Made by a program: the position numbers and the translations under genes. DNA of 64,000 nt from a virus (lineage: Duplodnaviria; Heunggongvirae; Uroviricota; Caudoviricetes): the IMG/VR virus record IMGVR_UViG_2740892439_000009; one strand, given 5' to 3'. Within the stretch, counting starts at the first letter, position 1. Each line of letters begins with the position of its first letter. Shown here one piece after another: positions 28,961-61,193 of the stretch. The notes under the pieces were generated by a model. That model saw only the letters and a program-made list of their open reading frames with translations. It was not told the DNA's origin and ran no database searches.

Positions 28961-28965
28961 AAATA

Positions 28966-28989
28966 AGGCGACTTTGGTCGCCTTTTTTG
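28966..28989 (+). terminator. Rho-independent terminator
   Basis: GGCGAC ttt GGTCGCC followed by TTTTTT. Confidence 0.6.
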
Positions 28990-29136
28990 TTAACAGCCAT
29001 TGATTCTCGCCTAAAAATTCTAAGGCAGCACCTACCATTTAACCTTTACACCACAGCCGTAGGCATTTAGGCTATATCACATATAAGAAAACAAGTTGTT
29101 TCAGACGATAATTATATACGCAAAGGGAACTCTCCA

Positions 29137-30208: not shown

Positions 30209-30928
30209 ATGCTCTACAAATATATTGGAAGTGAAGATTCGCAAAAAGTGTTACGTAACCTCAAACGGTTTGTAGAGGACGGCACTATCTCTGCTAGCGC
30301 ACCTTCTTCATTCAACGACCCATCAGAGTTCAAAGTTTCGATAACGATGGGAGGTACAGAAGTGGAGCGCCGGAAACACTTTGAAGACAATGGATGTAAG
30401 GATTTTTCCTTTGAAGACTGGGATGCTGTAGCTCCTGAAGCTGCAAAATCGTTGGCTGTGGATTTGCGGAAAGAATCATTAGGGGCTTTTGGTGTGGTGT
30501 GCTTGTCACCAAACGAAGATAACATCTTGATGTGGTCACATTACTCAGTGTCGCATAAAGGTTTCTGCATAGGCTTTGATGATGATTTTGTTACCTCTAT
30601 TGAGGGGTATCACAGCTTTGATAATGTGAAATATATACCTTCTGTTCCCGTGTTCGATGAAGTTACAGATGAGTTTAAGGTACTTTTTGATAAGCTCTTT
30701 TTCTACAAGCACGAATGCTGGAAATATGAGGAAGAACAAAGGGTTATTACTAAAAAAATAGGCGCTCAGGCATTTGATAAGAAATATATTAGAGAGATCA
30801 TTCTTGGACATAACGTTTCTCCTGAAGTAGAAGAATATGCCCGGACACAGCTAGACACGAGCATCGAGGTTTACAAAATGAGTACACCTGATGATGGTTA
30901 TCTTCTTGTCAAAGAAAAGCTGAAGTAG
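30209..30928 (+). CDS. DUF2971-family protein
   Basis: SFNDPSEF and LMWSHYSVSHKGFCIGFDDDF motifs; AT-rich gene. Confidence 0.6.
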   Translation: MLYKYIGSEDSQKVLRNLKRFVEDGTISASAPSSFNDPSEFKVSITMGGTEVERRKHFEDNGCKDFSFEDWDAVAPEAAKSLAVDLRKESLGAFGVVCLSPNEDNILMWSHYSVSHKGFCIGFDDDFVTSIEGYHSFDNVKYIPSVPVFDEVTDEFKVLFDKLFFYKHECWKYEEEQRVITKKIGAQAFDKKYIREIILGHNVSPEVEEYARTQLDTSIEVYKMSTPDDGYLLVKEKLK

Positions 30929-33105: not shown

Positions 33106-33148
33106 CTAATACTAGAAAACAATTTGTTTAAAAAACAAAGGAAAGCAC

Positions 33149-45558: not shown

Positions 45559-45656
45559 CCCCTCTTCTCCCTGCGCGAATGGCTTAGTTCCCTGTTCGCG
45601 CAGTGCTACATTAAACACACTAGTAAATAATTTGTTTTCATAACAAAGGATTAGCC

Positions 45657-52798: not shown

Positions 52799-52826
52799 AA
52801 AACCCGCCTGTTGGCGGGTTTATAAA
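52799..52826 (+). terminator. Rho-independent terminator
   Basis: AAACCCGCC tgtt GGCGGGTTT. Confidence 0.6.
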
Positions 52827-53312: not shown

Positions 53313-53641
53313 AGATATTACCTTCTTAATTTTGTGAGCCACATAGTGCGGCGAGAATTTGATCTGTATAGATTGGGACTTACTTAGGCACTTAAGGAGG
53401 AGACTCACGAAGAAGGGAAATCAGAAGATAACACTGAACTGAGACTGCTTTACTAAAACTGCTTACATAAGGTCTGTCTTGCAAACCAACGATGCTATTA
53501 ACGCATACCCCTTCTTTTCATGCAACCTTTATTTTTCAAAGATAACTAATTTTTGTCACCATTGGTTTAGTAAACGTTAACGAACCAGACGATGCCAGAC
53601 ACCTTTACAGAGAACAGATGCCCGCCAATTGGCGGGCATCA

Positions 53642-54744: not shown

Positions 54745-55176
54745 ATGAACACTGATATTTTTTCTAAAATCATGGCTGATCTGGAGTTCGACCGCGACAA
54801 CCTTGAGGAAGTATGGCGTAAGCAGCCACGGCTTTTAATGGAGTATGGGTCAAAACTAGCGCTGGCAGATCGAGATGTCGCAGAGGCAAAACTTAACCTT
54901 GAAGCTGTTGAAGCAAAGCTATACGACACAGAGCGTAAGAACTTGAGTATGAACGGCATTAAGTTCAACGAGTCTGTACTGGACGCTAAGGTTAAAACAA
55001 ACCCACAGTATCTGTCTAAACGGCAGAAGTTGGATGAAGCACGGCACATCGCAGACATATACAAACATGCTGTCGCCGCCTTTTCGCATCGCCGAGACAT
55101 GATCGTTCAGGCGTCGAAGATGGCTATCGTTGAATTAGAGCGATTAGGCTCTGAACGCTTTATTTCTCCCCGTTGA
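54745..55176 (+). CDS. Hypothetical coiled-coil protein upstream of SSB
   Basis: 143-aa ORF. Confidence 0.45.
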   Translation: MNTDIFSKIMADLEFDRDNLEEVWRKQPRLLMEYGSKLALADRDVAEAKLNLEAVEAKLYDTERKNLSMNGIKFNESVLDAKVKTNPQYLSKRQKLDEARHIADIYKHAVAAFSHRRDMIVQASKMAIVELERLGSERFISPR

Positions 55177-55181
55177 TTTTT

Positions 55182-55210
55182 GATAGATAATAAGTAAGTA
55201 CTGATCTATC
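55182..55210. promoter_or_regulatory. Intergenic inverted repeat GATAGATAATAAGTAAGTACTGATCTATC
   Basis: GATAGAT / ATCTATC outer arms. Confidence 0.35.
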
Positions 55211-55293
55211 ATTTAACAGCTCGAAAGAGCCACGAATGAACGAAAGCCCAACGCGCATAGCGCCATCGGCCAAATCACAACAAGGAGAAACAC

Positions 55294-56322
55294 ATGTCTA
55301 AGACATTACTTGATTTGCTTAACAAAACTCGTGAAGACATTGCCGCCAAACGTGGCAACAACGTTGATCTGACTCGCTTAAAAGACGGCGTCAACTATAT
55401 CCGCATCTTCCCGAATAAAGACGACCCAAACGGTAAGTTCTTCCAGACTTTCGGTATGCACTACGTTAAGTATCAGAACGAGGAAGGTAAAGAAGCAACC
55501 AACGCTTATATTTGTGAGCAACATACTCACGGTCGCGCTTGTCAGCTATGCGAAATGGTGATGGAAGGTCGCGCTCGTCACAAGGGTAACAAAGCAATGG
55601 AAGAACGCATCGGTCAAATGCGTGCCACTCCTCGCTACCTGGTCAACGGCATTCTTTCTGCTCGTGAGGATTTCGCAGATGCTGAGAAATGCCAGTTAAT
55701 CGAGCTGCCGTCTACTGTATTCGATGATATCTGCAAAGCAATCACCGAAGACATCGCTGATGATATCGGCAATCCACTGAGCAAAGAGGAAGGCTACGCA
55801 TTCCTGATTAAACGTACTGGCTCTGGTCGCGATACCAAATATGACGTCTCGCCTAAGCGTAAAGTCTACAAAGGCGATATCGAAGATAAATTCTGGAACA
55901 CCCAGCATGATCTGATCGCATACGCAAATCAGGCTGATGAAACTCGTCTTCTGTCGACAGTTCGCACTATGGGTCGTCTGATTGGCATCGCTGCACCAAC
56001 TGCCGCAGCATCTGCACCAGCAATTTCCTCAACCGCGAAAACATCGGCTGCGGCACTACCTGGATTTGGCTCTGTCACTGGTCATACAGAAGGAGCGACG
56101 GCTGTAGCAACCGCGCACACACCGGCTTCTGAACCAACCAGTCTGGTTGATGAAGAAATCCTCCGTGCCGTTGAAACTGAATTTAAACCAGAGGCAAGTT
56201 CCGCTGCCGTTGCCGTATCAGTCAAAGAGTCTGAAGCAGTCGCAGCGACATCTGTAGCAACCGCATCTGCGACGGAAGATGAAGGTCTGGATGACCTACT
56301 GAGAGAACTGGACTCTCTGTAA
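55294..56322 (+). CDS. Single-stranded DNA-binding protein (T4 gp32-like)
   Basis: Zn-binding-like C..H.H...C..C cluster; acidic C-terminal tail. Confidence 0.5.
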   Translation: MSKTLLDLLNKTREDIAAKRGNNVDLTRLKDGVNYIRIFPNKDDPNGKFFQTFGMHYVKYQNEEGKEATNAYICEQHTHGRACQLCEMVMEGRARHKGNKAMEERIGQMRATPRYLVNGILSAREDFADAEKCQLIELPSTVFDDICKAITEDIADDIGNPLSKEEGYAFLIKRTGSGRDTKYDVSPKRKVYKGDIEDKFWNTQHDLIAYANQADETRLLSTVRTMGRLIGIAAPTAAASAPAISSTAKTSAAALPGFGSVTGHTEGATAVATAHTPASEPTSLVDEEILRAVETEFKPEASSAAVAVSVKESEAVAATSVATASATEDEGLDDLLRELDSL

Positions 56323-56339
56323 TCCCATTACGTGACCAG

Positions 56340-56368
56340 TAAGGCGTCTACGGACGCCTTACTTTTTG
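56340..56368 (+). terminator. Rho-independent terminator
   Basis: AAGGCGTC tacg GACGCCTT followed by ACTTTTT. Confidence 0.55.
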
Positions 56369-56441
56369 GAAGGAGTGTACCGGTGAATTATCTCTTCGTA
56401 GATGGCAATAGCTGGGTTATTACCACCAACAATCTGACAAA

Positions 56442-57326
56442 TTGCACAACGGCGAAATGGAAGTACAGGCTGCTTTCGGCTTTGTTAAGAACGTCCGTCG
56501 TTATGCCTCCATCCTCCATGCCCGACCTATGATTCTTTGGGATGGATTTAGTGACAAGCGTCGCGACTTTTACCCGGACTACAAAGCAAATCGCGACGAC
56601 GATCCTGATATGAAAAAGATGAAGGAAGGCTTTGCTATCCAGAAGCCATACATCCTCAAAATGATGACCGCGCTTGGAGTTACCCAACTCATTGCAAAAG
56701 ATGCAGAAGCGGATGATCTGGCCGGGCTGCTGGTATCCCGCATGGCACCGCAGCCAACCGTTGAACACATCTATCTGTTAACAGGCGATAGCGACTGGCT
56801 TCAGTTAGTTCGCGAAAACGTAAGCTGGGTAAGCCTGCGCGAAGACGCCAAAAACAAGCAGGTTAATTTTGAGCAATTTGCGGAGCTGACAGGATTCGCT
56901 ACTCCTCGCGCATTTTTGGAAGCAAAAGCATTACAAGGCGATAAATCGGACAACATTAGCGGTGTTGGTGGCATTGGTGCTGGCGGTGCGAAAGAGCTGC
57001 TGCATGAATGGGGAAGTGTCGCAACGATGGTACGCGGCATCAACGACGGCTCAATCGTGGTTGACAAAGGACGCCATAAGACCGCCTTCAACAAACTAGC
57101 GAAGAATGCCTTCAACGAGAAAACAGGCTGTCGAATGCTCGAAGCGTTCAAGAGAAACATCACGCTAATGAACCTGATTGAGACGAAGTTTCCGCCTACC
57201 GAAATCGAAACAATCAAAGGCAATCGTGACGTGAAAGCATTCGAGCAACTGTGCTACGAGCTGAATTTCCGTTCGTTCCTTGAAGACCTTGAAGTGTTTG
57301 TTCTTCCATTCGAAAGGTATTGCTAA
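56442..57326 (+). CDS. 5'-3' exonuclease / flap endonuclease (FEN, RNase H-like)
   Basis: LLTGDSDWLQL and DKSDNISGVGGIG motifs; expected N-terminal motif (NYLFVDGNSW, GTG 56383) lies in a different frame. Confidence 0.65.
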   Translation: MHNGEMEVQAAFGFVKNVRRYASILHARPMILWDGFSDKRRDFYPDYKANRDDDPDMKKMKEGFAIQKPYILKMMTALGVTQLIAKDAEADDLAGLLVSRMAPQPTVEHIYLLTGDSDWLQLVRENVSWVSLREDAKNKQVNFEQFAELTGFATPRAFLEAKALQGDKSDNISGVGGIGAGGAKELLHEWGSVATMVRGINDGSIVVDKGRHKTAFNKLAKNAFNEKTGCRMLEAFKRNITLMNLIETKFPPTEIETIKGNRDVKAFEQLCYELNFRSFLEDLEVFVLPFERYC

Positions 57327-57592
57327 TGCTTAAATCGATTATTAATGGCGCTACAACCACCCCTACCCAACTGGCAAAAGAGATTGTCTTTTATCACGGT
57401 GAATACGCTGTCATCGCACTGCCGTCAATTCTGGGCGCTGCCGGAATGAAAGCGACAGATCGCGAGTTTGGATTAGTCAGCGAGCAGGTCGTAAAAATCC
57501 TCGCTCGTGTATCCAGACTCCTTAATCACGATGCGATTGTATTCGACGAATCCGCCGCTTTAAAACGAATCAACGAAACAAAAGGAGCCTGA
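57320..57592 (+). CDS. Hypothetical protein
   Basis: 90-aa ORF between FEN and RecA-like genes. Confidence 0.4.
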   Translation: MLMLKSIINGATTTPTQLAKEIVFYHGEYAVIALPSILGAAGMKATDREFGLVSEQVVKILARVSRLLNHDAIVFDESAALKRINETKGA

Positions 57593-57594
57593 TC

Positions 57595-58668
57595 ATGGCA
57601 AAAGGAAAATCCGCACTGGCACTTGCTCTGAAAAAGAAAATCGGTAGCAACGACGAAATTCAGAAAGTAACTCATTGGATTGACACAGGCTTTCCTCCGT
57701 TAAACAAAGCTATTTCTGGTCGTTACGATGGCGGCTTCCCATGTGGTCGTATCGTCGAAGTATTCGGTCCTCCAAGCGCGGGGAAAACGTTCCTTGCAAC
57801 AGCAGCGATGATCTCCGCTCAAAAACAAGATGGTCTGGCGGTATTCCTCGATCATGAAAACAGTTTTGACGTTGGCCTGGCTGTAGCCAATGGCCTGAAC
57901 GCAGATGAGGATGACGGTCAGTGGGTATACAAGCAGCCAGATACCTTCGAAGACTCTGTAGAGTTGATCGGCACAATACTTAAATTGGTTCGTGATGAAG
58001 AGCTTATCCCCGAATCAGCACCTATCTGTATCGTGGCTGACTCTCTTGCGTCTATGGTTCCGAACTCCAAAGCCGAGAAGTTCGAAAAGATGGCTGAAGG
58101 CACTGCCAAAGACAAAGATCAGCTAAACATGAACGACAATACGGCACTGGCTCGTGCGACGAGTGCGAACTTCCCTACTCTGGCTTTGTGGGCACGCAAA
58201 TACAACGCCTGCATCATCTTCTTGAATCAGGTTCGCACAAAAATCGGTGTAATGTTTGGCGACCCTACTACGTCGCCAGGTGGAGATTCACCGAAGTTCT
58301 ACGCTTCTGTACGTATCCGTCTTGGTGCATCGGTGATGAAGGATGGTAAAGAGAAGATCGGCCAGGACGTAGGCGCAGAATGCATCAAAAACAAAGTTGC
58401 ACCACCGTATGGCAAATGCACCTGGAAATTCTACTTCGATCCTACTCGTGGCCTCGACGTTATCGAATCGCTCGTCGAGTACATGCTGGAAGAAGGATAC
58501 CTGCCAAAGAACGCCAGCGGGCGAGTTGAAATTGGTGACAAGAAATACACAAAATCGCAGATCGTCGAGATGTATCGGGAGAAGCCACTGGCTGAAATCA
58601 TTGCGGCTTTGCAGGCAATCGACGACCGAAGAGCAAAAGACAACCCCACCGAGTCAGTAGAAGAGTAA
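57595..58668 (+). CDS. RecA/UvsX-like recombinase
   Basis: GRIVEVFGPPSAGKT Walker A region and overall pattern parallel RecA. Confidence 0.75.
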   Translation: MAKGKSALALALKKKIGSNDEIQKVTHWIDTGFPPLNKAISGRYDGGFPCGRIVEVFGPPSAGKTFLATAAMISAQKQDGLAVFLDHENSFDVGLAVANGLNADEDDGQWVYKQPDTFEDSVELIGTILKLVRDEELIPESAPICIVADSLASMVPNSKAEKFEKMAEGTAKDKDQLNMNDNTALARATSANFPTLALWARKYNACIIFLNQVRTKIGVMFGDPTTSPGGDSPKFYASVRIRLGASVMKDGKEKIGQDVGAECIKNKVAPPYGKCTWKFYFDPTRGLDVIESLVEYMLEEGYLPKNASGRVEIGDKKYTKSQIVEMYREKPLAEIIAALQAIDDRRAKDNPTESVEE

Positions 58669-58712
58669 ACACAAGGCGTCCACATGACGCCTTTTTTATC
58701 TCTTGAAAATAC

Positions 58713-58728
58713 ATAAGTACTTACTTAT
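58713..58728. promoter_or_regulatory. Palindrome ATAAGTACTTACTTAT
   Basis: ATAAGTA / TACTTAT arms with 2-bp spacer. Confidence 0.4.
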
Positions 58729-58760
58729 TATTTTCGCATAACAACCACATAGGAAAACAC

Positions 58761-58961
58761 ATGATCAAAATCTATCTATTGGCAGTAGCCACAGGCCTTT
58801 CAGTGGCTCTCATCTACGGTTTACTGGTTCCATCGCTGATTTCTACCAAGAGTGATTTAGCCGTCATGTTTGGAGTTGTCGTTGGTTTTGGCGCTCCAGT
58901 AATCGGTCTTATTGGTGGTCGTAAGTTTATTAACTCATTAATCAAAGCAAAGGGGAAATAA
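58761..58961 (+). CDS. Small hydrophobic membrane protein
   Basis: 66 aa, two hydrophobic stretches. Confidence 0.45.
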   Translation: MIKIYLLAVATGLSVALIYGLLVPSLISTKSDLAVMFGVVVGFGAPVIGLIGGRKFINSLIKAKGK

Positions 58962-59095
58962 GTAATGAAGAAAGGTTTACTTGCAGTTGCTCTGGCGGCT
59001 ATTTGCACAATGGGTCTTACTGGCTGTGATCGCGTGGAGCTGGATACGTTGGCATCAAAGTAAACAAATTAGGTGAAGACAAAGGGATTGGTGAA

Positions 59096-59794
59096 GTGGT
59101 TGGCGTTGGTCGCCAATGGACAGGTCTTAACACCGAACTTTACGTATTCCCAACCTTCAAACAAATGAAGACCTACGACGAGCCGTTCACATTCCAGATG
59201 AGTGACGGTACTGCTATTGGTCACAAAATTGGCGTTGCGTATCTGGTTAATCGTGACAAGGTAACGACGGTGTTCCAGACCTATCGCAAAGGCGTAGACG
59301 ATATCACCGAATCAGATCTGCGTCAGAAAATTGCCGACTCTCTAAACCGTTTGGCCAGCCGTATGACCACTGATTCATTTATCGACGGTGGTAAGGCGCA
59401 ATTGCTGGACAACGCACTTAAAGATATTCAGAAAGAGATGTCTCCGGTTGGTATTGAGGTACTGAGCCTGTCATGGGTTGGAAAACCTGATTACCCAAAA
59501 ACCGTCATTGAATCTATCAACGCCAAAGTAACGGCTAACCAGCGTACTCTGCAACGTCAGCAGGAAGTTGAACAGCGTAAAGCTGAGGCGAATATGCTAC
59601 GTGAACAGGCTAATGGTGAAGCTGATGCTATCCGTGCTCGTGCGCAAGCAGAAGCAGACGCCATTCGTCTGCGCGGTGAAGCTCTGCGTCAAAACCCGAA
59701 CGTTATGGAGCTGGAAGCCATCAATAAATGGAATGGCCAGTTACCGCAGTACATGACTCAAGGGGCTAACACTCCTTTCATTACAGTGAAATAA
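59096..59794 (+). CDS. SPFH/band-7 domain protein
   Basis: GYVGIKVNKLGEDKGI-type N-terminal region in frame upstream of the called start; a lipoprotein signal peptide (58965-59063) lies in another frame. Confidence 0.55.
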   Translation: MVGVGRQWTGLNTELYVFPTFKQMKTYDEPFTFQMSDGTAIGHKIGVAYLVNRDKVTTVFQTYRKGVDDITESDLRQKIADSLNRLASRMTTDSFIDGGKAQLLDNALKDIQKEMSPVGIEVLSLSWVGKPDYPKTVIESINAKVTANQRTLQRQQEVEQRKAEANMLREQANGEADAIRARAQAEADAIRLRGEALRQNPNVMELEAINKWNGQLPQYMTQGANTPFITVK

Positions 59795-59808
59795 CTCCCC
59801 TTAAAAGT

Positions 59809-59837
59809 TCAGGCGTCCAGTTGGACGCCTTTTTTAT
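59809..59837 (+). terminator. Rho-independent terminator
   Basis: AGGCGTCC agtt GGACGCCT followed by TTTTTT. Confidence 0.6.
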
Positions 59838-59885
59838 CGCAATTATCTTATTAAGAAAACAATTTGTTTAAAGGGTCAAGAAAAT

Positions 59886-60311
59886 ATGACAGCTATTAAG
59901 AAACTCTACGATGCTGCAAACGCGGCTCTGGATGTTATTGATGATGAAGTATCAAAAGGCTTTCCTGAACCTGATTGGGCGCATCAGCTACGAAACGCTA
60001 TCGCCGAAATGAATCCACCAGATCCAACCCCCGACGAGACAGACTGGCAGCGATTCATCCGTATGTACGCTCAGGAAATAGGTCCAACGCCAACGGCAGA
60101 GCAGGCAATGCTGCTGAAATACTTCAAAGAGGCGGGAGAGGATTTACCAATTGATGACTCAGCATATTGGTTCCACTGCGCATGGCGTAAGTATGACGTG
60201 ATATTCACACAAGGCATGGGAAGCAAAGATATGGTTGTGTGGCATCTACTCCATATAGACACAGCCGTTGACAGAGTTATTGAACAGTTTTTACCTAAAC
60301 AAGAAGATTGA
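59886..60311 (+). CDS. Hypothetical protein
   Basis: 141-aa ORF. Confidence 0.45.
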   Translation: MTAIKKLYDAANAALDVIDDEVSKGFPEPDWAHQLRNAIAEMNPPDPTPDETDWQRFIRMYAQEIGPTPTAEQAMLLKYFKEAGEDLPIDDSAYWFHCAWRKYDVIFTQGMGSKDMVVWHLLHIDTAVDRVIEQFLPKQED

Positions 60312-60366
60312 TCGCCTATTCATAACTAACAAAATAAGTAAACACTAACCACAAAAGGAAAAACAC

Positions 60367-60642
60367 ATGAGAGTTTTAGTTCGAATCGTTACCAGCACTG
60401 TCTATGACGTGTTTCCGCTTTTTATGGTCAAAGCCGATGGCCTTAACGACGAAGAAACTGACGCGCTGATCCAGCGTATTCTCGTTGAATATACAGGTCA
60501 TGACGCTGATTCAGTGATGGTTGATGATGATGGTGTTTGTTGGCATAACGGCAACTGTTGGTACGTAGAAGAGACTCAACAAATCAGTGATGAAGATGCC
60601 GCACATCTTGAGCGTATTTTAAGCATCAGCACTTTTGAGTGA
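60367..60642 (+). CDS. Hypothetical protein
   Basis: 91-aa acidic ORF. Confidence 0.4.
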   Translation: MRVLVRIVTSTVYDVFPLFMVKADGLNDEETDALIQRILVEYTGHDADSVMVDDDGVCWHNGNCWYVEETQQISDEDAAHLERILSISTFE

Positions 60643-60857
60643 GTTTACAGTAAAATTTATATAAGTTAGTATCTACCTATCATGAAGATTTTTATTGAAT
60701 ACTTGTTACTCATCGTTTCAATAGCTTTTGTCATCGACTGCATTTTCACTGGTGTCATTCGTAAAGTCTTTTCCCCGGTGAACGACGTAGTCATAAACGC
60801 TTTGGCTATCGTGCTCGTATTTAATTCAGCATTTGATGTAATCAAAGAGGTGGCAGC

Positions 60858-61193
60858 ATGAAGGCCATCCCATTCGCGCTGTTGTTCCTTTCTTCGATCG
60901 TTGTGGCCGACACCACTGTTTATCAGTGTGAAATGTCTGTAGCCGACGTTAAGAATGGCGCTCTTACCGACGTCATAAAAGCACCATATGGAGCGATGGT
61001 CGTAGACAGCGGCGACCAGTTCTATGTTGTGCGTGACGATCGAGTATTGTCATCCCCATATCTCACAAACCGTAATGGCAAATTAACCGGCGTCGGAGAA
61101 GACCACTTCGTATACAATAAATACAAGGGCTTCTATGGCGTTCACGCTTCTCAGCAAAGCTACCTTTTCGATGACTGCAAGGAGGTTGGATAA
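60858..61193 (+). CDS. Secreted small protein with N-terminal signal peptide
   Basis: Hydrophobic N-terminus MKAIPFALLFLSSIVVA. Confidence 0.45.
   Translation: MKAIPFALLFLSSIVVADTTVYQCEMSVADVKNGALTDVIKAPYGAMVVDSGDQFYVVRDDRVLSSPYLTNRNGKLTGVGEDHFVYNKYKGFYGVHASQQSYLFDDCKEVG

Follow-up and report, generated by a model that had tools for sequence, protein, structure and literature searches.

What does it mean that three hairpins within one short region of a phage-plasmid genome, two of them directly behind recombination genes, are built on the same stem? The window analysed here, a single stretch of 64,000 nucleotides, belongs to an SSU5-like phage-plasmid of E. coli with 98% identity to Escherichia phages CMS-2020a and Cyrano, the latter a related complete genome of 108 kb, and about 80% identity to SSU5 itself. 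Phage-plasmids of the SSU5 type, among them pHCM2, pMT1, pLF82/Cyrano and numerous plasmids of Klebsiella and E. coli, occur widely in Enterobacteriaceae and carry variable accessory genes, and the RecA-like protein of the window matches 1380 PLSDB plasmids. The recombination operon comprises a UvsY-like gene, a gp32-like SSB, a 5'-3' exonuclease, a small ORF and a RecA-like gene. The SSB, RecA, exonuclease and Band_7/SPFH identities come from Pfam, using the window genes or, where these are frameshifted, intact orthologues, and the UvsY-like gene, which has no Pfam match, is named by the annotation of Cyrano. The exonuclease is one of the genes frameshifted in the window, and its assignment was made on an intact orthologue.

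Three hairpins with a common stem and T-runs lie on the + strand where the first-pass annotation had placed them, and start 18, 5 and 14 nt past the stop codons of the SSB, RecA-like and SPFH genes, respectively, in each case on the coding strand. Site 1 (56338-56363, to 56368 with its T-run) follows the SSB stop codon (56320-56322, + strand) and has an 11-bp stem, AGTAAGGCGTC-tacg-GACGCCTTACT, closed by a C(UACG)G tetraloop and followed by TTTTGG. Site 2 (58673-58693, to 58699) reads AAGGCGTC-cacat-GACGCCTT and then TTTTAT behind the RecA-like gene, and site 3 (59811-59830, to 59836) reads AGGCGTCC-agtt-GGACGCCT and then TTTTTAT behind the SPFH gene. The window copy of site 2 carries a private G-to-T change (CACAG to CACAT), and its stem is one pair shorter than in all relatives. 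With stems of 8-11 bp including 5-6 G-C pairs, loops of 4-5 nt and a following run of 5-6 T, in which C takes the place of the first T at site 1, the three sites show the anatomy of intrinsic terminators, namely a GC-rich stem-loop and then a U-tract closely behind a stop codon. Folded with about 50 nt of context, sites 1, 2 and 3 gave energies of -20.2, -17.8 and -15.7 kcal/mol, with z-scores of -4.5, -5.6 and -4.0, respectively. An Rfam scan of 54.5-61 kb gave no family match at the hairpins, the only signal being a sub-threshold isrG inside the SSB gene. Judging from this anatomy, the hairpins most likely act as Rho-independent terminators or attenuators, and would provide annotation with three probable transcript boundaries and one probable attenuator within the recombination operon.

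The common stem exceeds what chance would supply. In the window, GGCGTC-N(3-8)-GACGCC has three matches vs 0.01 expected, and none of 100 shuffles reached three; the suspicion that the stem might be no more frequent than chance is thus not borne out for its inverted-repeat form. The heptamer AGGCGTC occurs 16 times vs 7.06 expected, with the hairpin arms accounting for 6 of the 16 and the remaining 10 being unremarkable. In the complete genome of Cyrano, the inverted-repeat stem is found at the three orthologous sites only, so that the three copies stand in the same register and on the same strand inside 3.5 kb of a 108-kb genome. As a background, a 6-mer is common to the stems of 31 of 1170 pairs of GC-rich hairpins lying far apart in Cyrano (2.6%) and of 9 of 156 pairs within 5 kb (5.8%), a rate that three same-register, same-strand copies exceed well beyond. 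This near-versus-far enrichment is weak, and stem sharing as a general trait of neighbouring terminators was rejected. Two further neighbouring hairpin pairs with common stems were seen (CCCGCC/GGCGGG and GCGCCCA-cta-TGGGCGC).

Comparison among relatives shows that pairing is kept in 88.5% of cells vs 25-55% with slid partners, and G.U wobbles occur at the stem base. Covariation is sparse, with double changes in 3 of 10 pairs, and the stem of site 2 passes through the series GGCGTCC/GGACGCC, GGCGTCC/GGGCGCC (with a U.G wobble) and GGCGCCC/GGGCGCC; the wobble intermediate and the compensatory change point to a structure formed by the RNA. Across 27 distinct variants, and also in a relative whose RecA is 74% identical, six core pairs hardly change, a conservation higher than pairing alone strictly requires. 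The loops of sites 2 and 3 are free to vary and are non-UNCG, whereas the UNCG loop is kept at site 1.

Sites 2 and 3 form a pair of direct repeats, the left and right copy, respectively, at a spacing of about 1137 bp. In the E. coli lineage both copies read AGGCGTCC, loop, GGACGCCTTTTTTATC, with the identity reaching into the T-run and flank. Between them lies a two-gene cassette on the + strand, preceded by a sigma-70-like promoter called by the promoter scan (TTGAAA-17-TATTAT, 58703..58731, + strand, 10/12), which SSU5 keeps as TTGAAA-17-TATCAT and which is absent from cassette-less relatives. The first gene (58761..58961) encodes a 66-aa membrane protein with no Pfam match, and a homologous small membrane ORF stands upstream of the SPFH gene in phiP27 and Stx2 phages. 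The second (58967..59794) encodes an SPFH/Band 7 lipoprotein (Pfam Band_7, 2.6e-30, on the intact orthologue); in the window it is frameshifted by one C lost at 59039 within CCTGG, as compared with four relatives. In phiP27 and Stx2 phages the two-gene unit is closed by a hairpin of unrelated sequence, GCCCGGC...GCCGGGC, which rules out that the hairpin was imported along with the SPFH genes and shows that the GGCGTC stem belongs to the SSU5-type backbone. A foreign base composition of the cassette was likewise rejected: its GC content (0.452 vs 0.474) is not distinctive, thus a foreign origin is not visible in composition.

The cassette is polymorphic. Among 84 related loci, 44 carry the SPFH gene, with hairpins at about +9 and about +1147 from the recA stop, and roughly 35 have no SPFH gene and a single hairpin. 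Some of these single hairpins are chimeric. In one lineage (L072/L073/L093) the left flank and loop of site 2 are fused to the right flank of site 3, and in another (L080-L084) the left flank of site 2 is fused to the loop and right flank of site 3. The crossovers thus fall in the 3' arm and T-run in one lineage and in the 5' arm in the other, and two crossover points mean at least two events. The first-pass suggestion of a duplicated terminator cassette therefore holds for sites 2 and 3, which are direct repeats around a polymorphic cassette with the junction inside the hairpin; for site 1, which shares only the 8-bp arms and of which IMG/VR yielded no recombinant with site 2 or 3, a common origin is plausible at most. 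The reciprocal junction, a mini-circle or tandem duplication, was absent from IMG/VR and JGI metagenome contigs, although the test is weak, small circles seldom being assembled.

In the cassette-less state one hairpin stands after recA, and directly behind it come a -10-like box, a palindrome resembling an operator and then the DUF7238 operon; in the window lineage the cassette sits between two copies of that hairpin. In the mechanism that we propose, homologous recombination between the 24-29-nt direct repeats would excise the cassette precisely and leave one chimeric hairpin, and the reverse reaction could insert it. The direction of the original event is a matter of interpretation. We consider it probable that paralogous stem-loops punctuate the recombination operon and that sites 2 and 3 bracket a moron-like cassette lost by homologous recombination in the hairpin. 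Loss of a repeat-bounded cassette is a real finding and a fairly ordinary one, following a known route of phage gene shuffling, and it alters the general picture only modestly, since terminators between modules and the loss of cassettes through repeats are both well-known ideas.

A moron, in the concept of Hendrix and Juhala, is an accessory gene with its own promoter and terminator between backbone genes. The cassette resembles one in being a two-gene unit with its own predicted promoter and terminator, located between backbone operons and polymorphic among relatives, and its genes also occur in unrelated lambdoid prophages. It differs in that its 3' terminator copies the backbone recA terminator instead of being imported, and in that its base composition is not atypical. 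Morons, including those defined by RNA-seq in Cyrano, have been described (bioRxiv 10.1101/2022.10.28.514194). The closest functional parallel is the PeSL (promoter-early stem-loop) cassettes of T4-type myoviruses (PMC2839356; Comeau et al. 2014, PMC4122927), in which PeSL-mediated excision leaves a single chimeric element (Arbiol et al. 2010, PMC2839356). Common to both are an intergenic repeat with a terminator-like stem-loop, joined to a sigma-70-like promoter that is here a putative one, an accessory ORF between two copies with one chimeric copy in a close relative (here in both chimeric lineages), the same inferred mechanism of homologous recombination between repeats, and T4-like recombination proteins, which the phage-plasmid encodes. 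Within the locus, however, the composite form differs by site, as site 2 is followed by a separate called promoter and site 1 has no promoter. Unlike the T4-like myoviruses, the host element here is a temperate phage-plasmid of siphovirus type, and it has no sequence relationship to PeSLs; it has three hairpin-bearing copies vs about 50 PeSLs per genome, its terminator and promoter are predicted, an additional 13-bp palindrome lies downstream of the -10 box, and no mini-circle junction was found in IMG/VR or JGI metagenomes. The resemblance is thus one of function, not of family.

Site 1 stands apart. It lies 21 nt upstream of the exonuclease start (RBS GGAAGGAG, GTG 56383, + strand), shows no promoter features and leaves no room for a promoter ahead of the next start codon; transcription must therefore pass it, and as a hairpin internal to the operon it can cause partial termination at most. 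It is near-invariant among 79 relatives, with a single loop variant, TGCG, that is also UNCG, and a K. oxytoca plasmid (RecA 74% identical) has the identical 8-bp stem with a UUCG loop between unrelated flanks. A UNCG tetraloop closed by a C-G pair (in UACG, UGCG and UUCG forms) is thus found at site 1 only. The possibility that the hairpin lies within an N-terminal extension of the exonuclease, from an in-frame GTG at 56332 in the window or from the upstream ATG used in the annotation of pJN2-26, was rejected because several lineages have no such start codon and the K. oxytoca plasmid has an in-frame TAA before the hairpin. Site 1 probably serves either as a leaky terminator or to stabilise the mRNA, and would probably keep SSB high in ratio to exonuclease and RecA through partial termination and/or protection of the 3' end of the SSB transcript. 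Attenuating terminators inside operons set product ratios in E. coli rpsU-dnaG-rpoD and after gene VIII of filamentous phages. Similarly, site 1 parts a stoichiometric protein (SSB) from catalytic enzymes (exonuclease, RecA), although its role is here read from gene layout. Intercistronic C(UUCG)G or UNCG tetraloop hairpins reportedly occur in phage T4 mRNAs, and the C(UACG)G hairpin of site 1 likewise stands between two cistrons of a T4-like recombination module; it differs in having a T-run after it, so it may also terminate, and in being known from sequence. At the SSB/exonuclease junction of an Acinetobacter relative there is a hairpin with a GNRA loop and no T-run, an arrangement that mRNA stabilisation or processing would explain no less well than termination.

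Does site 1 then share its origin with the other two? Common descent is plausible, and its kinship with sites 2 and 3 could instead be convergence, because the 8-bp arms only are in common and no recombinant joining the left arm of site 1 to the right tail of site 2 or 3 was present in IMG/VR. Strong terminators draw on few GC-rich stems, with A before and T after, and at least site 1 might have arisen independently; besides the roughly 2.6% of unrelated Cyrano hairpin pairs with a common 6-mer, one distant pair in that genome even shares an 8-mer with the arms swapped. We regard convergence or chance as unlikely given three matches where 0.01 were expected, all in one register and strand within 3.5 kb and with no other copy in Cyrano. 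For sites 2 and 3 it is further opposed by the identity that runs through GGACGCCTTTTTTATC into the T-run and flank, and by the chimeric single hairpins, which show shared ancestry or recombination of the two sites.

The first-pass annotation had also raised a shared recognition element. On such a reading, a protein of the phage or the host would bind the stem as RNA or DNA at all three sites and coordinate expression of the recombination genes; candidates would be an antiterminator, a nuclease that processes the transcript, or the gp32-like SSB regulating its own expression. The near-invariance of the core six pairs in 27 variants while loops and flanks diverge, the preserved site 1 stem of the K. 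oxytoca plasmid amid unrelated flanks, and the location of all three sites in one functional module are what such an element would lead one to expect. Yet the half-site spacing varies from 4 to 6 nt, and at site 2 some lineages, among them a Yersinia plasmid of the pMT1 type, have exchanged the T-A pair for T.G and further for C-G with no change at sites 1 and 3, so the sites do not co-vary. Moreover, Klebsiella relatives of the pJN2-26 type have an unrelated terminator at site 2 and retain site 1, nothing of the kind follows recA in a K. oxytoca relative, no Rfam family matches, and stem conservation at sites 2 and 3 is also explicable by strong purifying selection on the hairpin, perhaps with promoter-like overlap. 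Recognition of the stem thus finds no support in the variation among relatives, and we consider it quite unlikely. A dedicated site-specific mechanism acting on the hairpin, such as an integron integrase with attC-like sites or a hairpin-targeting transposase, appears highly improbable. The cassette is indeed bounded by hairpin-forming repeats and an integrase is encoded elsewhere in the genome according to the Cyrano annotation, but no recombinase gene lies in or beside the cassette, and a circular junction was found in neither IMG/VR nor JGI metagenomes. The crossover points differ between the two lineages, in keeping with homologous exchange but not with a cut at one set position, and a full T4-like recombination set (UvsY-like by annotation, gp32, RecA and exonuclease) is encoded by the phage-plasmid itself.

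Homologous exchange at sites 2 and 3 may be part of a wider arrangement. The site 3 hairpin forms the 5' end of a repeated composite of hairpin, -10-like box and palindrome AAACAA-N-TTGTTT; in the window the box is TATCTT (59844-59849, + strand), which most relatives have as TATTAT, and the 13-bp palindrome, AAACAATTTGTTT (59857-59869, + strand), lies in the leader of the DUF7238 gene (ATG 59886). The loop end and 3' arm of site 3 read TTGGAC (59821-59826), which is weakly -35-like with 3/6 consensus positions, and the promoter scan made no call there. In site 3 and in the single-site form, TATTAT or TATCTT follows 16-17 nt past TTGGAC and is succeeded by a conserved leader, and an alignment of about 55-60 nt links these elements to further promoter-like repeats in the genome. 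The composite is a putative terminator/promoter/operator, with promoter and operator activity suggested by sequence. The palindrome occurs 4 times in the window vs 0.35 expected, and about 20 times in Cyrano with at most one mismatch, most copies being at most 75 nt upstream of start codons, with a dense group at 93-99 kb among small hypothetical ORFs. We found no prior description in the literature of the palindrome, or of a stem-loop, hairpin or moron of SSU5, pHCM2 or pMT1, although incomplete coverage makes this weak evidence of novelty. The C1 repressor of P1 acts at operators scattered over the P1 genome. We tentatively propose, as a possibility short of an expectation, that SSU5-type phage-plasmids carry such composites genome-wide, with the palindrome, placed close upstream of the RBS, as operator of a single global regulator comparable to C1 and the repeats as crossover points for their own T4-like recombination machinery. 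If so, the three hairpins would be the visible tip of PeSL-like shuffling in temperate phage-plasmids, a group that matters as a vehicle for accessory and resistance genes. Terminator/promoter repeats serving as crossover points would offer a concrete, testable mechanism for the gain and loss of morons by phage-plasmids, the SPFH cassette among them, and would carry the PeSL concept beyond virulent T4-like phages into temperate phage-plasmids. A possible fourth relative of the three sites is a bidirectional hairpin at 28965..28990, AAGGCGAC-tttg-GTCGCCTT with a T-run (-13.9 kcal/mol), which is one pair swap away from the shared stem and has a further copy of the palindrome 105 nt downstream of it, at 29089 in the parA leader.

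Identity over 55000-61000 (98% to Escherichia phages CMS-2020a and Cyrano (pLF82), the latter a complete 108-kb relative, and about 80% to Salmonella phage SSU5) places the window within an E. coli phage-plasmid of the SSU5-like type. PLSDB lists about 800 SSU5-like plasmids whose RecA is at least 90% identical. Its T4-like recombination module on the + strand comprises UvsY-like, gp32-like SSB (PF08804), 5'-3' exonuclease, small ORF and RecA (PF00154) genes, the UvsY-like gene having no Pfam match and being named after the annotation of Cyrano, and is followed by genes for a 66-aa membrane protein, an SPFH/Band 7 lipoprotein and a DUF7238 protein. The first-pass annotation had reported that hairpins after the SSB, RecA-like and SPFH genes reuse one stem followed by T-runs, and all three, with the common stem GGCGTC/GACGCC, are present on the coding strand and non-random. 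Site 1 (56338-56363, AGTAAGGCGTC-tacg-GACGCCTTACT, then TTTTGG), site 2 (58673-58693, AAGGCGTC-cacat-GACGCCTT, then TTTTAT) and site 3 (59811-59830, AGGCGTCC-agtt-GGACGCCT, then TTTTTAT) start 18, 5 and 14 nt past the respective stop codons, with folding energies of -20.2, -17.8 and -15.7 kcal/mol and z-scores of -4 to -5.6. A search found GGCGTC-N3-8-GACGCC three times in the window against 0.01 expected, and the complete genome of Cyrano has it nowhere but at the three orthologous sites. The plain heptamer of the stem occurs 16 times against 7.06 expected, an enrichment due to the three hairpins only, whose arms account for 6 of the 16. Scanning for terminator-like hairpins gave 29 candidates in the window and 58 in Cyrano, or 25 and 52 distinct loci with same-site matches on both strands merged, and the other stems are unrelated to the common one. 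A single 6-mer is shared by 2.6% of distant pairs of GC-rich stems, and hence is not rare; three same-register copies inside 3.5 kb are not due to chance. Termination, as well as the promoter activity and operator function discussed below, we infer from anatomy and conservation. In the window, site 2 carries a private G-to-T change at 58684 (CACAG to CACAT), by which the closing C-G pair of other E. coli-lineage relatives is lost and the hairpin weakened from -20.6 to -17.8 kcal/mol in context; the equivalent G is retained in every other site 2 variant.

The sequence downstream of the RecA-like gene was extracted from 80 IMG/VR loci (92-100% protein identity), together with SSU5, Cyrano and one Klebsiella relative. 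The SPFH gene is present in 44 loci, with hairpins about 9 and about 1147 nt past the recA stop, and missing in about 35, with one hairpin at +9; in most of the latter, the post-site-3 sequence of the window lies directly 3' of the single hairpin, other sequence being found in a few lineages. In two contigs with flanks 98-100% identical to the window (L072 and L073), the exact junction is recA-TAAACAC-AAGGCGTCC-aca-GGACGCCTTTTTTATC/GCAATTATCTTATTAAGAAAACAA, i.e. the left flank and loop of site 2 joined at the slash to the right flank of site 3, and searching by pattern revealed the same junction in one further contig, L093. In L080, L081, L083 and L084, which belong to the SSU5 lineage, TAATCAC-AAGGCGTCC-actt-GGACGCCTTTTTTATTTCC combines the left flank of site 2 with the loop and right flank of site 3, thus the crossover lay within the 5' arm. 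With two crossover positions, at least two independent events must have occurred, and these positions fit homologous exchange between repeats, not cleavage at one fixed position. The 1138-bp unit starts with a putative sigma-70-like promoter (58703-58731, TTGAAA-17-TATTAT, 10/12 consensus; TTGAAA-17-TATCAT in SSU5), ends with the second hairpin, and is a moron in form. This moron-like SPFH cassette has its recombination joints at sites 2 and 3, and the terminator duplication proposed earlier holds for these two direct repeats with their chimeric junctions. Site 1 may share their ancestry, but it has only the 8-bp arms in common with them, and no recombinant with either was found in IMG/VR.

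The full cassette with both flanks was found in 195 complete E. coli genomes, and the SPFH gene at about 75% identity in 208 further chromosomal places, which the matches to Stx and phiP27 phages suggest to be lambdoid prophages. The membrane-protein and SPFH gene pair (58761-59794) has about 75% nucleotide identity to lambdoid Stx-converting phages and phiP27 (1236-2247 in phiP27, L087; about 1260-2274 in the Stx2 phage L088), in which its position is near int/xis and 'serine protease' is a frequent annotation. After the stop of the pair, phiP27 and Stx2 phages have GCCCGGC-aggcc-GCCGGGC, a hairpin unrelated to the common stem, which makes the site 3 hairpin a copy of the local recA terminator; the common stem itself is a property of the backbone, not brought by the imported genes. 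The spread of the cassette-less form across the most diverged Klebsiella-type lineages suggests that this form is ancestral, and L072/L073 and L080-L084 look like secondary deletions because they are nested in cassette-bearing clades.

At site 3, the loop end and 3' arm form TTGGAC, followed 16-17 nt on by TATTAT in nearly all lineages (TATCTT in the window), and this promoter-like arrangement was not called by a promoter scanner. AGA and then the 13-bp palindrome AAACAA-N-TTGTTT lie about 11 nt past the -10-like box, with an RBS and start codon 15-30 nt further. With at most one mismatch, the palindrome occurs four times in the window against 0.35 expected, always in gene leaders, namely those of parA (29089-29101), a helicase gene (33117-33129), a cobT-like gene (45625-45637) and the DUF7238 gene (59857-59869). 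These four copies lie 15-50 nt upstream of start codons, and the palindrome usually has AAGA before it and a -10-like GATAAT/TATTAT about 11 nt upstream. In Cyrano's complete genome, about 20 matches were found at the same threshold; most precede a start codon by no more than 75 nt, and they are crowded at 93-99 kb among small hypothetical ORFs. The alignment of site 3 and the single-site elements with other members of the family covers the -35 region (TTnGACGCCTT), the -10 and the palindrome, and the copy at Cyrano 98425 retains TCCACTTTGACGCCTTATT with a decayed 5' arm. A repeated terminator/promoter/operator-like element thus has site 3, the right-hand repeat copy, at its 5' end, and its palindrome, of which we found no description in the searchable literature, resembles either a global regulator's operator or a conserved leader. 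Candidate regulators are the element's HTH proteins, homologues of Cyrano CYRAN_37, _45, _98 and _114.

It has been shown that the stem-loops of PeSLs, the promoter-early stem-loop cassettes of T4-type phages, terminate transcription, and that recombination between PeSLs deletes ORFs and yields mini-circles (PMC2839356; PMC4122927). The composite element of hairpin, -10-like box and palindrome parallels PeSLs in layout: a terminator-like stem-loop would overlap or adjoin a putative sigma-70-like promoter, copies of this arrangement may precede accessory ORFs, and indels have two copies in one genome and one chimeric copy in a relative. The resemblance is confined to function. Just three copies have the hairpin, the genome is no T4-like myovirus, the -35 match at site 3 is weak (3/6), and neither in IMG/VR nor in metagenomes was the reciprocal junction expected of a circle or tandem copy found. 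No prior description of the terminator/cassette arrangement of SSU5-type elements was found in the searchable literature; the underlying principle is already established, and the significance is modest.

Site 1 is without promoter features, and the exonuclease RBS (GGAAGGAG) and GTG start (56383) lie within 21 nt of it, so close that expression of the exonuclease and recA needs read-through. Site 1 is near-invariant in 79 loci, even in those with about half of the 16 nt upstream substituted, and has a UACG loop on a C-G closing pair, with UGCG as the sole loop variant. A K. oxytoca plasmid whose RecA is 74% identical has the stem AAGGCGTC unchanged, a UUCG loop and unrelated flanks, so that each of the three loops is a UNCG tetraloop. 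At the SSB/exonuclease junction of an Acinetobacter relative there is another stable hairpin, with a GCAA loop and no T-run. We infer that site 1 is a leaky terminator and/or a 3'-end-protecting hairpin, through which SSB transcripts would outnumber those of the exonuclease and RecA. The pJN2-26 record annotates the exonuclease with an N-terminal extension from an ATG (window 56332-56385; 7283 in locus L003). Such an extension from the in-frame GTG 56332, which would enclose site 1, was rejected; since other lineages have no start codon there, translation probably starts at GTG 56383, which has a strong RBS.

The other earlier suggestion, that the stem is a shared recognition element, gained no positive support. 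Among 27 distinct variants aligned from the three sites, the stem is paired in 88.5% of cells, versus 25-55% with the 3' partners slid. The T-A pair of site 2 becomes T.G in three loci (L053, L054 and L065) and C-G in L034, L035 and a Yersinia pMT1-type plasmid, and the wobble intermediate is paired in the + strand transcript only; the loops of sites 2 and 3 vary freely (aca, att, gtt, gaat, aaac, actt, agtt, agta). These patterns point to constraint on the hairpins as RNA structures. While the six core pairs are otherwise nearly invariant and covariation is sparse, which leaves some room for a sequence-specific reading, the spacing between half-sites is not fixed (4 to 6 nt), changes at the three sites are not concerted, and the stem matches no Rfam family. 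Moreover, Klebsiella pJN2-26-type relatives retain site 1, yet their site 2 terminator is unrelated (AAAGGCGC-tagtat-GCGCCTTT).

A bidirectional hairpin at 28965-28984 (AAGGCGAC-tttg-GTCGCCTT, T-runs on both strands) differs from the common stem by one swapped pair, T-A to A-T. It ends a 250-aa ORF, in place of whose module Cyrano has a KacT toxin-antitoxin pair, and homology between window and Cyrano breaks about 45 nt downstream. Other boundaries between the two also tend to fall at terminator hairpins (near 30232, 43467 and 61421), as is expected for mosaic phage genomes. Between the DNA polymerase III alpha gene and hicB, two neighbouring hairpins on the - strand (52800-52821 and 53617-53640, spaced by 817 bp) share a stem of their own, CCCGCC-aaNN-GGCGGG, and Cyrano 99531-99551 and 99804-99820, 273 bp apart and outside the window, have GCGCCCA-cta-TGGGCGC; both pairs may be further duplicated terminators around small inserts. 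The RecA-like gene (57595-58668) is uninterrupted in the window, while Cyrano and many relatives (L068-L086) have a 1263-bp insertion at about 57786, and several plasmids with it are annotated 'intein-containing recombinase RecA' or 'LAGLIDADG family homing endonuclease'. Against four near-identical relatives, the only two 1-nt deletions in 54.7-60.7 kb are at 56411 and 59039, breaking the reading frames of the 5'-3' exonuclease and SPFH genes. Each is a C lost from CCTGG, the Dcm methylation site, a signature of systematic long-read basecalling error at methylated sites, thus the frameshifts are probably assembly artefacts, not pseudogenes.
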